Below are positions 15,770 through 20,403 of a stretch of DNA of 64,000 bases, in pieces. The notes under the pieces are model-generated. The model searched no databases, had not been told where the DNA came from, and saw only the letters and a program-made list of their open reading frames with translations. Source of the stretch: Lophium mytilinum (lineage: Eukaryota); NCBI GenBank assembly GCA_010093605.1, contig MU004186.1, positions 575,765-639,764 of the forward strand, written 5' to 3'. Both the position numbers and the translations under genes were made by a program. Within the stretch, counting starts at the first letter, position 1; every line of letters begins with the position of its first letter.

Positions 15770-16334
15770 AGTATCGATCAGGTCACATAGCATATGTAGA
15801 AGAAGGTTGTGTTTGAGTCTAGAATCGCGAGCGTGGTGATGCAACTGTGGCGGTGCGACGGCGCTAGAACGGTTTTACTCTAGCATCGATCTGGGGATCA
15901 CCGACATCGCTTGACAACCTCATGGAGGGTGCGCTCGGGGGAATAGCTGGCGCATTCGATAGGTAGGGTCCAGTTGATTATGCGTGGGATGGCCCGTCCC
16001 CGCAGGTGTGCGCTGTACAGGTCTCTAAGAGTGAAGAGAATTTGATTTAGTCGGAGTGCATGACGGGTCACATAGATTTACAAATACTGGATGATGAAAC
16101 ATTGCTTTAATGGCGTCTAATTCCAAATGCCAATCATCAATGCATAAGTACCCTGATCATGAACTCCTAAATCATACATCCCCTGAGCCTGCAATATTCA
16201 CTCTTCTGGAGATCACAGTCATAGTCCGAAATGCAGTGTGACGTCCTATCAGATGTCGCACTTGAGACATCAAACCATGTGCACCTCTGACTTACCACTT
16301 CGGTAAGCTCCCACGCAAACCAGTTGCAGTGCAC

Positions 16335-18362
16335 CTAGAATCCAGCGCCCTCGCCGTTGACACCATTGACACCGTTAGCCCCGTTCGCGGCCAGTCCCTT
16401 GCTCTCCTTCAAGATGTCTGCCGTTATCTGATCCAGCACGCCAGCGCTAGCAGCCATGAAGCCCAGATAGGGCTTGCTAGGGTTCAGGACGCGACTCAGG
16501 TACTCGGGATGGAACTGCACACCAACGAACCACGGGTGGTCCTTGAGTTCGATAATTTCCATACGCTCGCCCTTGTCATCCTTGCCGACGAAGCTGAGGC
16601 CGCCTTGCTCGAGGCGCTCAATGTAGGCGGGATTAACCTCGTAACGGTGCCGATGGCGCTCCAAAATTTCGGGCTTTTCGGCGTAAAGCGCGCGGAGCTT
16701 GCTCCACTCACTTCCAGACTGGAACAATGTAGGCCGCTTCCCTAGCCGCATTGTGGCGCCCATAGTCTTCTTATCAACCTCGGGCATGAACATGATAAGG
16801 CGCTCCGCGGCCTCTGCATTGAATTCTTCAGAGCTGGCGCCTTCAATGCCGCAGACATTGCGCGCAAACTCTATGACGGCGATTTGCATTCCAAGACAAA
16901 TGCCTAGATACGGAGTTCGGTTCTCGCGGGCCCACTTGGCCGCAAGGATCATGCCTTCCGTGGCGCGGTGGCCGAAACCACCAGGAACCAGAATGCCGTT
17001 AGCAGTGCATAGCTGGTGCCAGGCCTGGTGGTATTTAGCAGGGTCTTCGGTCTGATAAGAGTGCTCCAGGTACTCCGCGTCAATCCAGATAATATTCAGC
17101 TTGCGCCGGCACCGCATAGCAGAATGCTCGAGAGACTTCGTGACGGAAAGATAGGCATCGTGCAATTCGACGTATTTTCCAACGAGGGCAATATTTACGG
17201 TCGCGAAGAAGTGGTCTTCGGGGGCGGTGAGACGCTTCCACTGATCCCACGTGGCGCTTCCTTTCGCGACCACCGCCGGAGAAAGGGAGAGGCGGTCCAG
17301 GCTGAGGATGTCTTGGAGCTGCGGAATGAGACCTTGCTGTTCCAGAAGCATAGGAACCTGGTAGACGGTAGGCATGTCGCGCACCACAATGACAGATTCA
17401 ACTTCTACTTGACAGAAATGGGCAATCTTCTCCACAGCTCCCTTGTCGAGGTTGCGCTCGCAACGGCAAGCAATCTAAAACAGAAAGTCAGATCTGCTCT
17501 TGGGCGCTCGGGAGGAATGTCTCACCAGATCGGGAATGAGGCCAGCACTCCGCACCGCTTTGACAGCCTGTTGGGTGGGTTTTGTCTTCTGTTCGCCATT
17601 GATGGTAGGAACATATGAGACGTGGATTTGTAGGAAGTTGTGCTTTCCCGCGCGCCGCCGCAGCTGCGTCATGGCCTCAACGAAGGGGCTGCTCTCGATG
17701 TCTCCAACGGTGCCACCCAACTCAATGATGCACACGTCGGGCTCCTCGCCGGTATCATCGACGGGTATCCGCGCAACCCTGGTTATCCACTGTTCAATGG
17801 CGTCGGTTATGTGGGGCACCACCTGCACCGTCTTCCCAAGATAGTCGCCGCGGCGCTCGCGCTCGATGACCTGCTGATAGATCTTGCCCGTGGTGATATT
17901 GTTCTCGCGCGTCAGGGTGATGTTGAGGTATCGTTCGTAGTTGCCCAGGTCGAGGTCGACCTCACCGCCGTCGTCCAGGACAAACACCTCGCCATGTCTG
18001 CACAGACTTTAGATGCTGCAATCCCCCGCCTGGTGGAGACACGTACTCTTTCGGGTTCATAGTCCCAGCATCGACATTAAGATAAGGGTCGATTTTAATG
18101 GACGACACGTTCTGAGGATGTCAGCTGCGTGTCTCGTCGCGTTGGGAGGGCTCACCTATCTTCAGGCCGATTGTCTTGAGCAGCAAACCGGTGGAGGAGG
18201 CTTTGACGCGTAAATTTAGCTGCCAACCATACGCGGGGCGGGCACATGCATACCGATGATGCCCTTTCCCACACCGGATATAACACCTACGCGGGTTAGC
18301 ACCGAATTGGCAGTCACGATAGAAGAAATACACGCACCTCCAGAGACAAGGACGTATTTCAT
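16335..18362 (-). CDS. URA7: CTP synthase (introns 18287-18337, 18201-18253, 18109-18159 [AT-AC], 17998-18046, 17475-17525)
   Basis: [61 protein letters not shown]. Confidence 0.98.
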
Positions 18363-18898
18363 GATGGCGATAGAAGTATGCGGTGCCGTTCCTGGCCAAT
18401 GCCAGGGGGAAAGAAGAGAAGAAGCTGAGCGCCGGCTCAAAGATTTTTGTACGGCGGGGTGGGGCGGACTGTCGGACGCGCTAACCACGAGACGAGCAGC
18501 GAGGCGCCATGGCTCAGCGCGACGGATCCTTCATTCAACGTCACTTCGTCGACGCACTGCTGCTCCGCAGATCCTTTCAGTCTTGTAGGTGAATTGTATT
18601 CCTCGTAAACATGCTAGGTAGGCTATGTCTTGGTATCGTACTCGATGCGCTCGCAACCCCCCAGCGTATTACACCATGCATCGCCAACTACACGCGTCGT
18701 GTACAGAAATATCGCCGTAATCATACGTTCCAGTCCGTCACTCCGTCCGTCTTGTTTGTCGTCAAAAATGCCCGGGATATCTGTCCAGTAAAGTGCCAAA
18801 TTTGAATCAATATGCCGCGCCGCCTGCGTCTAGAAAGAAATTATAACCCATATCCCAAGAAAAAATGCCTGCCATATGCATGCCGCGCCGCCGTCTCG

Positions 18899-20403
18899 TC
18901 AAACCCTGCGCCGTCGTTTGCTTGGGTCTTCGTCATCGTCTTCCTCTTGGTGATAGGGCGGCTCTTGTTGAGAGGCCGCCTCTCGCTGGTTGGCTTCGTT
19001 CCAGGCCTGCTGGGCCTCTCCAGCCTGCCGCTTGCGCGCGCGTGTCATCGCGGCAATGGCCTTTTCATTCCCTTTCTTGACCTGTATGTTACATCCTTGC
19101 AGCTTGAGTGCTCGGGTAAGGGCGCTGCTCGGGCGCATGCCAGGGAAGTCCTTCGCGGTATACACGGTGAAGACGTCGCTTAGCACTTCGGTCAAGATGG
19201 GTGAGAATCCGCCCACGTGCAGATTCATCGGGTCTATCCGCATCAACACGAAACGTAACCGGTACTTTCCGTGTGTCCGACACGACAGGTCGGGGAAACA
19301 GAAGAAGCAACCCTCGACGTCGTGCTCGTCTTTAGCAACCGACGGCGAAGCTACGAGCTGGCCCATCAGCCTGCGTGTGGTTCGTCGGTCTGGTTGGATG
19401 AGTGCCGTCTCTTCGTTCGTTCCATCTGCGTTCCACAGAGTACAATGAACAACATTGAGCGAGTAACGTAGCTCATCGGTGTCAGCAACACCGGTCTTCG
19501 GGTCGGTCACTAGGAGCTGTATGATCGGGGGAGGATCAATGACCCTCCGGTCTCGTTCGCCAAAGCCGCAAGCGCGCGCTGCGATGGGTTGCTGGCGCAC
19601 TCGTAGCTCGTACGCTAGGTTTCTTCACGGCTATGTTAGCTTTCTCCCTTATCCGCGGAATTACAAGCTTACAGTTTCTCGTTCACAACAGGCTGCGGGA
19701 TAGAACCGGGTAACGGTACGGCGCTGGGTAACGGTCGAGGGCCTGCCGTTGCAGGTTCCGCATACGCTAGCGAGCCCAGGGAAGATGGGATGGATCCTCG
19801 ATGCGAGCCTATGGATCCCCGGAATGGAGTATTGCTGGACGCATAACTCGGCGTGTAACTGGGTGATGGGAGTGGGGCATACGACGGTTTCTGTGACGGT
19901 TCGACGGGCGAAGCAAGGGGTGCGTACTGCTGCTCGGGATGGCTGGGTCGCCTATCTTCGTAGGCATACCGCTGTTCCACCAGGCGCCTGGGAGCGCTTC
20001 TGTCTTCAAACTGCGAGCGCGGCGAGATGGAGGGCCCATACTGCTGAGGTGAGTAGGGTGGATCCGACCTTGGCGGGGTATACGGGTTCGCCTGGAGCAA
20101 CTTCTCGACGGGCGCCGCAGACGCCACATGGCCTCGAGGCTGGCTCGGGCGTGCTGGAGGGCCTGGCTGAATCGAGGGGAGTGGCTGTGCGATGGGAGAG
20201 CGGAATTGATACTCTGGTCGTACAGCGTTCGGCGGGATGGTGAGCGGTGGCAGCTGGACAGGCTGCGGCAGACGGCGATAGGGATTGCCTAGGAACTGGG
20301 GCGGAGGAAAGGACGGCGGCTTCTGAGTTTCAGTCATGGCTGGAGAAGAGAGGGCGGAATTTGGCGGATGCAGCGGCGGAGGAGGAGGTGGTTGTCGGGA
20401 CAT
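18899..20403 (-). CDS. velC: Velvet-domain protein, VelC-type (intron 19623-19672)
   Basis: Pro-rich N-terminus then C-terminal velvet domain RQQPIAARACGFGERDRRVIDPPPI..FPDLSCR..FPGMRPSS. Confidence 0.88.

Follow-up and report, generated by a model that had tools for sequence, protein, structure and literature searches.

A candidate U2-type AT-AC intron in the CTP synthase gene of Lophium mytilinum and its conservation among related fungal loci

The stretch of DNA analyzed here (the window; 64,000 nucleotides) was taken from contig MU004186.1 of the Lophium mytilinum assembly GCA_010093605.1 (positions 575,765 to 639,764 of the forward strand). On its minus strand lies a CTP synthase gene, in which the third intron departs from the GT-AG rule of its neighbours, with AT as its first and AC as its last two bases. 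Exactly this intron is missing from contigs treated as transcript-derived, and its terminal dinucleotides were found in nearly all related loci that carry an intron at the same boundary. Very probably, the intron is real, is spliced out constitutively and belongs to the U2-dependent ('type II') AT-AC introns; judged by its sequence features, it appears to be a new, deeply conserved instance of this known class.

The six joined exons (Table 1) form an open coding sequence of 1773 nucleotides (nt) for 590 amino acids (aa). Both hallmark domains of CTP synthase were detected, namely CTP_synth_N (PF06418, E = 9.8e-71) on exon 5 and the class-I glutamine amidotransferase domain (GATase; PF00117, E = 4.4e-41) on exon 6, which identifies the host gene. 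Exon 6 is 100% identical to the public 541-aa protein named CTP synthase of Lophium mytilinum (Dothideomycetes, Mytilinidiales) and shows 63-82% identity to relatives among the public-protein matches listed. The four remaining introns, for which the first-pass annotation of this DNA had given lengths of 49-53 nt, all lie in this range and are GT-AG in every case.

The minus strand reads GGC CTG AAG / ATAGGTGAGC...GCAGCTGACATCCTCAGAAC / GTG TCG TCC ATT AAA at the junction of exons 3 and 4. The first-pass annotation had claimed that excision of the 51 nt at 18159..18109 restores the conserved reading frame and that retention of the intron meets an in-frame TGA; both were confirmed, the TGA being located at 18123..18121. 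For a systematic search of alternatives, every start in 18195..18136 was combined with every end in 18140..18076. Among all enumerated pairs, none was a GT-AG or GC-AG excision that stays in frame, and the flanking residues GLK and VSSIK were kept solely by AT...AC (51 nt) and AT...AG (48 nt, with one additional Asn). The latter is in frame but was rejected, since the contigs described below skip 51 nt and the AC is invariant in the relatives. Rejected as well was a stwintron (spliceosomal twin intron), in which a canonical outer intron forms only once a canonical intron inside it has been removed. Here, excision of the potential 44-nt GT-AG intron nested in intron 3 leaves 7 nt (ATAG+AAC), from which the joint AAG/GTG is unreachable by a canonical second excision. 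The twin-intron solution is impossible because the first base after AAG is an A.

Four public runs were compared with the window over 16300..18420 as assembled contigs, none of which was listed by the search as being on record as RNA. The DNA run X1 yielded a single contig (depth 154) that spans 16300..18420 with 0 differences from the window. X1 is possibly the source sample of the window itself and thus represents an independent assembly, not an independent sample. Neither the A at 18159 nor the C at 18109 is a slip of the window assembly; the minus-strand G at 18159, which the first-pass annotation had named as the observation that would speak against its reading, is not present in this identical contig.

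The run X3 gave a single contig of 4917 nt (depth 896) without any difference over exon pieces of 1175, 472, 62, 41, 30 and 86 nt. It skips the four GT-AG introns (CT..AC on the plus strand) plus exactly 18109..18159. At the intron 3 joint (18108->18160), 51 nt with GT..AT on the plus strand, i.e., AT..AC on the gene strand, are taken out with no positional ambiguity. Since none of the five introns is present in X3, whereas the identical DNA contains each of them, X3 was treated as transcript-derived. The same five joints were found in one contig of X10, which comes from a relative (164 differences), and the joint 18108->18160 was also found in X4, from another organism, resulting in counts of one (X3), one (X10) and two contigs (X4) with 'both' = 0. 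X10 and X4 inform on the exon junction only and not on their own intron ends. The AT-AC intron that the gene had been proposed to need is therefore the one that is removed in the transcript contigs. For X3, X4 and X10, the listing included neither the joint 18111->18156, which corresponds to the 44-nt splice, nor a contig that retains the intron; this is uninformative on absence or ratios since contigs drop rare variants. The X3 contig runs about 2.85 kb past the 5' side of the gene and probably joins neighbouring transcripts, so that it does not define the mRNA ends.

For the analysis of conservation, metagenome contigs were scanned with exon 5, resulting in 80 loci, in which exons 3 and 4 were located by their peptides and the interval between them was read. 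The boundary holds AT...AC in 65 loci, GT...AG in one (L045) and no intron in 11; it was unreadable in 3 (L061, L065, L068). Thus, the termini are conserved in orthologues, with AT-AC in 65 of the 66 related loci bearing an intron at this position, and mixed AT-AG or GT-AC pairs were found in none of the 80 metagenome loci. Seven loci lack intron 3 while keeping other introns (L050, L051, L053, L055, L056, L060, L071). No intron at any assessed, covered position was found in L029, L069, L073 and L079, where transcript-derived contigs and intron-less genes are indistinguishable. L029 contains an uninterrupted reading frame of 576 aa that is 98% identical to a Tuber brumale protein; when it was aligned to the genomic locus L074, the aligned blocks omitted exactly the 54-nt AT-AC intron (L074:2804-2857). 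It may be a transcript-derived contig within the metagenome collection. Rough clustering of a 150-nt coding segment separated the AT-AC carriers into 43 lineages at 97% identity; at 90%, 29 or 30 remained, i.e., 29 pure AT-AC clusters and one that also contains an unassessable locus.

From these loci and the window, 49 unique AT-AC introns with a length of 49-84 nt were obtained. Their interiors are unalignable, so that the ends are the conserved part. The 5' hexamers were ATATGT (21), ATAAGT (20) and ATAGGT (4, the form found in the window), followed by ATACGT, ATAAGG, ATTTGT and ATTAGT with one each. By position, A1, T2 and G5 were identified in all 49 introns, T6 in 48 and A3 in 47. The preceding exon ends with AAG in 49 of 49 cases and never with the synonymous AAA, i.e., the last exon base is always a G. 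At the 3' end, A in position -2 and C in position -1 are likewise invariant. The last three bases are CAC (36), TAC (8) or AAC (5), and the resulting preference in position -3 (C 36, T 8, A 5, G 0) follows the pattern of YAG in intron 4, which was used as a control. A CTRAY branch motif 9-13 nt from the 3' end was identified in 47 of the 49 introns. In 14 of them, including that of the window, the AC is preceded by an AG three bases upstream (AGNAC).

In the same loci, GT-AG fits 71 of the 72 rows that have control intron 4. The distance between branch and 3' end was considered as a peculiarity of the AT-AC introns and rejected, as control intron 4 has the same spacing (10-12 nt). The 5' site, in turn, was found to be more strict: the combination of A3, G5 and T6 is present in 46 of 49 AT-AC introns compared to 28 of 83 for introns 2 and 4, which lie in the same genes, with a nominal Fisher p of 2e-12 that overstates the difference because the sequences are related. 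In addition, a G in position -4 is more frequent in the AT-AC introns (36/49, mostly GCAC/GT) than in the neighbouring GT-AG introns (24/83). In the window, this G (18109-18112, minus strand) is the G of the nested CAG. Intron 2 entered these numbers only where a single GT-AG intron fitted, its tally being unresolved in 13 rows with longer intervals, mostly Pleosporales-like. In the Pleosporales-like loci L005-L023, L036 and L044, the stretch from GKG to STGLLLK (exons 2-3) measures 102-257 nt and no single canonical intron fits; intron 1 is absent there, and the 5' gene structure differs.

The features of a U2-type intron were found together in intron 3: AT...AC is exactly removed, ATAGGT matches the U2 consensus except for position +1, and a CTGAC branch motif lies 12 nt from the end. 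The view that ATAGGT is a G1-to-A variant of a U2 donor agrees with the orthologue profile, in which A1 (49/49) stands on an otherwise U2-type site. The absence of a U12 signature, also claimed previously, held for both motifs. In place of the U12 5' site /ATATCCTT (or GTATCCTT) the window has ATAGGT, and a start with ATATCC was found in none of the 49 unique introns. For the U12 branch TCCTTAAC, expected 10-15 nt from the 3' end, the 3' profile of the 49 introns shows CTRAY instead.

According to passages of PMC1557818, U2-type AT-AC introns exist and have termini conserved in orthologues, and a G1-to-A change is rescued by a change of the last G to C, albeit less efficiently than normal splicing. 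The few dozen metazoan type II cases share a strong /ATAAGT consensus, as stated in an excerpt of PMC5029451. Parts of PMC10639083 and PMC2846911 describe the Ascomycota, Pezizomycotina included, as having no minor introns or minor small nuclear RNAs (snRNAs). AT-AC junctions account for about 0.03% of the fungal gene-model introns in one pipeline (PMC4084796, in part) and are found less often in fungi than in animals or plants (PMC7072748, in part). Searches of the open-access literature on AT-AC introns in fungi, Neurospora and Aspergillus gave general surveys only. No link between CTP synthase and a fungal AT-AC intron was found in the open-access literature, supplements aside, and a report elsewhere is possible.

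To place the loci, a FastTree tree was calculated from exons 5 and 6, the intron-3 region being excluded. Of its 102 rows, 73 are loci and 28 are named references, the remaining one being the window; 7 loci with too few filled columns had been dropped. The AT-AC carriers are spread over clades that group with five classes. L074 and L075 group with Tuber (Pezizomycetes; 90% identity to the T. brumale protein) and L076 and L077 with Thermoascus (Eurotiomycetes), next to others that group with Chaetothyriales-like sequences. L048 and L049 group with Cadophora malorum (Leotiomycetes), others with Lachnellula and Botrytis, and further carriers with Lasallia and Piccolia. L024-L028 are found with Aureobasidium (97-99%), L005 with Parastagonospora (97%), and others with Elsinoe-like sequences, other Pleosporales and the window.

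Loci without intron 3 were found in a Pseudogymnoascus-like clade, in an Exophiala/Rhinocladiella-like subclade and in Dothideomycetidae-like clades. The sole GT...AG intron at the AT-AC position (L045:890-942, plus strand; 53 nt, GTGCGA...CTCAG) belongs to a locus that is sister to the intron-less L051, L056 and L060 with a local support of 98%; L045 is therefore a candidate for a natural conversion from AT-AC to GT-AG. The tree requires a minimum of 6 changes of intron state. In the simplest history, the common ancestor of the Pezizomycotina sampled here, near the base of the subphylum, would already have carried the AT-AC intron, and several losses and one conversion would have followed.

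A mechanism can be proposed that is consistent with these observations. The 5' site would be recognized as an ordinary fungal donor via positions +2 to +6 (TAGGT; family consensus ATANGT) together with the exon AAG, and the near-perfect match at these positions would compensate, along with AAG, for the mismatch at +1. The branch would be the ordinary CTGAC. In the second step, as suggested by published genetics, A+1 would pair non-canonically with the terminal C, leading to ligation at AC; since this step would prefer a terminal C, the CAG three bases upstream would be passed over. As the Ascomycota lack a minor spliceosome, the major spliceosome would have to splice intron 3. The AT-AC state may persist because a switch to GT-AG needs two coordinated changes, and the GT-AC or AT-AG intermediates would be splicing-defective in an essential gene. 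Lineages would then escape from AT-AC by intron loss and rarely by the double change.

Several points weigh against a constitutive and U2-dependent AT-AC intron of this kind. The RNA label of X3, X10 and X4 is a guess of the tool. The contigs give no isoform ratios, and a minority 44-nt splice or products degraded by nonsense-mediated decay (NMD) would be invisible in them, so that constitutive removal is not proven. Dependence on the major spliceosome is deduced from the reported lack of minor snRNAs and introns in Ascomycota. The loci are metagenome contigs whose taxonomic position was taken solely from the nearest named protein and from a quick FastTree tree, and the age of the intron is a lower bound, with the sampling confined to Pezizomycotina. 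The enrichment of G in position -4 has no explanation, and the two-mutation barrier is an argument rather than a measurement.

Alternatively, the AT-AC ends could be kept by selection and not by a mutational trap, with slow, second-step-limited splicing tuning the output of CTP synthase across Pezizomycotina. This is unlikely, although it would fit the retention of AT-AC in almost all loci with the intron, in lineages grouping with five classes, the unusual strictness of the 5' site and the last exon base, and the -4 enrichment. Against it stand the losses in the Pseudogymnoascus-like, Exophiala/Rhinocladiella-like and Elsinoe-like clades and the one conversion, amounting to at least 6 state changes. 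Moreover, the neighbouring GT-AG introns were lost at a comparable rate, and compensation for the A1 mismatch would lead to strict flanking signals just as well. A similarly low probability is given to a wider form of this idea, in which AT-AC would be a selected kinetic brake that, through a slow second catalytic step, sets or adjusts how much of the rate-limiting enzyme for making CTP is produced across Pezizomycotina, the nested GT of the window would add an NMD-coupled decoy, and the -4 G and the exon AAG would form a recognition code for AC ligation.

The first-pass annotation had proposed that two splices compete, a productive but weak AT-AC splice and a strong nested GT-AG splice (18155..18112), the product of which would undergo NMD, and that this competition limits or feedback-regulates CTP synthase. 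Its description of the nested intron was accurate: GTGAGC...CAG has a length of 44 nt, and its use leads to the translation GLKIERVVH and a TAA (18097..18095) after 39 codons, i.e., to the premature stop known from systems of alternative splicing coupled to NMD (AS-NMD). The donor GTGAGC is consensus-like and the CAG is located 9 nt past the branch A. Upon inspection of the sequence, pairing with U1 is about equally good in both registers, and, according to the passages of PMC1557818 mentioned above, rescued G1-to-A introns are spliced less efficiently than normal ones.

The proposed switch itself found no backing, and we consider it quite unlikely. A strong donor (GTRNGY at +5) was identified in 1 of the 49 unique introns, which is that of the window, and AGNAC in 14. 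Of the offsets that had been expected to be conserved in orthologues, the AT and AC ends thus stood (65 of 66 loci with the intron), whereas the nested sites did not. A nested GT exists because G5 and T6 of the normal 5' consensus spell GT. The peculiarity of the window consists of the four bases GAGC, which make this GT a consensus-like donor; GTGAGC is proposed to be a lineage-specific accident of the bases that follow. As the strong nested donor occurs only in the window, it is not a conserved device. In addition, at least 7 loci have lost the intron outright but retain others, and one has it in GT-AG form, which argues against an indispensable regulatory role. The nested intron (44 nt) is shorter than the shortest intron measured in the CTP synthase gene across the loci (46 nt), and the distance of its AG to the branch A is at the lower edge of the observed range of 9-13 nt. 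The local RNA structure around the competing sites was unremarkable, with a minimum free energy of -18.2 kcal/mol and a z of -0.53 versus shuffles. A conserved regulatory design at intron 3 is unlikely on these sequence comparisons, and some unproductive splicing in the species of the window alone is possible.

It is very unlikely that intron 3 is the fossil of a U12-type AT-AC intron that kept its termini and gained U2 internal signals when ancestors of the Dikarya lost the minor spliceosome. In its favour, U12 introns typically have AT-AC ends, ATAT (ATATGT) is the start of 21 of the 49 unique introns, and, according to passages of PMC1557818, the animal type II AT-AC introns occur in gene families in which U12 introns are found as well. 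However, neither ATATCC nor a TCCTTAAC-like branch occurs in any of the 49 introns, no link of CTP synthase to minor introns was found in the open-access literature, and the sequences compared are from Pezizomycotina only.

An extant U12-type intron, for which the terminal dinucleotides alone speak, has a negligible probability in view of the divergent 5' site (ATAGGT) and branch (CTGAC), the lack of ATATCC in all 49 introns and the absence of U12 splicing from Ascomycota, including Pezizomycotina, reported in parts of PMC10639083 and PMC2846911. An artefact, either an assembly or sequencing error at 18159 (a true G would give a 48-nt GT-AG intron adding one Asn) or a pseudogene, is favoured only by the prior rarity of AT-AC in fungal gene models (PMC4084796, in part) and is refuted as far as contigs allow by the identical X1 contig, the 51 instead of 48 nt skipped in the transcript contig, AT and AC in 65 further loci, the intact 590-aa frame and the similarity of exon 6 to its relatives.

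Among the closest known systems, the animal type II introns (SCN4A/SCN5A and TAF2; passages of PMC1557818) share AT/AC termini on a U2-type 5' site, long conservation and extreme rarity. The 5' site ATAAGT, ATATGT or ATAGGT of the CTP synthase intron is comparable to the metazoan consensus /ATAAGT (PMC5029451, in part). In contrast to the animal cases, the intron described here is located in a fungal housekeeping enzyme gene of a lineage without a minor spliceosome. It also differs in being very short (49-84 nt) and in having a CTRAY branch of the yeast-like form at 9-13 nt from the 3' end, and its class is known here from sequence. AT-AC junctions in an ascomycete without a minor spliceosome are also found in the RPL30 intron of S. 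cerevisiae, where, as an excerpt of PMC5029451 states, an atypical internal AT-AC pair is used in 1-2% of the mRNAs, has a 5' site unlike the U2 AT-AC consensus and is unproductive. In CTP synthase, by comparison, no splice other than AT-AC is productive, and the 5' site resembles the consensus. For filamentous fungi, type II AT-AC introns are hypothesized in the same passages of PMC1557818 to exist in xylanase genes; class and group of organisms would agree with the intron described here, and the gene is a different one. GC-AG introns, also covered there, are similar in that a deviating donor is offset by a stronger match to the 5' consensus, as seen here for A3, G5 and T6; they are unlike the AT-AC introns, whose deviation lies at +1 and requires a matching change of the last base.

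U12-type AT-AC introns share the terminal dinucleotides, whereas their 5' site and branch consensus are absent from the CTP synthase intron and their machinery, per the literature, from Ascomycota. AS-NMD systems resemble the window in that a competing splice leads to a premature stop, but its competing sites are not conserved and have no known regulator. In engineered yeast and mammalian introns, the G1-to-A change was reportedly rescued by changing the last G to C, in work said to be that of Parker and Siliciano (1993), Chanfreau et al. (1994) and Scadden and Smith (1995). The pairing logic of first and last nucleotide is alike in both. The engineered introns are suppressor mutations, whereas AT-AC in CTP synthase is the natural fixed state of an essential gene.

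The related loci thus amount to a natural covariation experiment on the interaction of the first and last intron nucleotide in the major spliceosome, with 65 AT+AC, one GT+AG and 0 mixed pairs. In 14 of the 49 introns an upstream AG is bypassed, and the lineage has no minor spliceosome that could confuse the reading. A U2-type AT-AC intron can apparently last through the radiation of a whole subphylum, with escape mainly by loss and rarely by conversion. Some carriers are near cultured species (Aureobasidium, Parastagonospora, Thermoascus, Cadophora), which makes the splicing rules approachable at the native locus. What is notable about intron 3 is the depth of its conservation, the lack of a minor spliceosome in the lineage and the effect on annotation; it reveals no new kind of system, and the regulatory idea behind its apparent exceptionality is unsupported.

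The effect on gene models had been anticipated by the first-pass annotation, which expected predictors to misannotate the junction. For its assessment, 154 named models were hand-listed from the 330 public proteins returned. At the junction, 81 of them are intact, 71 are aberrant and 2 lack the landmark motif. The aberrant models start downstream (39), lose exon 3 (20), lose all or part of exon 4 (7) or carry extra residues (5), and examples are spread over many genera, including Rhizina, Lasallia, Ophidiomyces, Geoglossum and Phylliscum. The public model of Lophium mytilinum itself (541 aa) is among them: it starts with MNPKEHGEV, which corresponds to residue 50 (Met50) of the 590-aa model, and has lost exons 1-4. 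Where aberrant models read on from exon 3, GLK is followed by Ile (codon ATx) in 11 of 12 cases, and where they read into exon 4, VSSIK is preceded by His, Tyr or Asn (codon NAC) in 22 of 24; these residues are therefore the footprint of AT... and ...AC in the respective genomes. An essential and universal enzyme is thus mis-modelled in about half of the named Pezizomycotina models examined, with one intron to blame. Permitting AT-AC at the GLK/VSSIK boundary repairs misannotated CTP synthase models.

Table 1. Coordinates of the CTP synthase gene in the window and of the sequence elements of its third intron.
Feature	Position	Strand	Description
CTP synthase gene, start codon to stop codon	16335..18362	minus	six exons, 590 aa
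CTP synthase exons 1-6	18362-18338, 18286-18254, 18200-18160, 18108-18047, 17997-17526, 17474-16335	minus	
Intron 1	18287..18337	minus	GT-AG, 51 nt; contig joint with 3-5 letter positional ambiguity
Intron 2	18201..18253	minus	GT-AG, 53 nt; sequence and X3 contig joint
Intron 3	18109..18159	minus	AT-AC, probable U2 type, 51 nt, ATAGGTGAGC...CTGACATCCTCAGAAC
Intron 4	17998..18046	minus	GT-AG, 49 nt; sequence and X3 contig joint
Intron 5	17475..17525	minus	GT-AG, 51 nt; sequence and X3 contig joint
5' splice site ATAGGT (A1 T2 A3 G4 G5 T6) of intron 3	18154..18159	minus	exon AAG precedes
Branch-site motif CTGAC of intron 3	18120..18124	minus	putative branch A 18121, 12 nt from terminal C, 9 nt from nested AG
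3' end AAC (terminal AC) of intron 3	18109..18111	minus	exon GTG next
In-frame TGA upon retention of intron 3	18121..18123	minus	inside branch motif CTGAC
Nested potential GT-AG intron GTGAGC...CAG	18112..18155	minus	44 nt, frame-shifting
TAA reached via the nested 44-nt splice	18095..18097	minus	translation GLKIERVVH*

The next gene upstream on the same strand (window 18902-19624, minus) encodes a protein with a Velvet-factor domain (PF11754, E = 2.8e-62). In one public model that is filed under a plant name (P0166, 910 aa), CTP synthase and Velvet domains were found in a single protein, which looks like a fungal sequence in which two adjoining genes were merged by the predictor.

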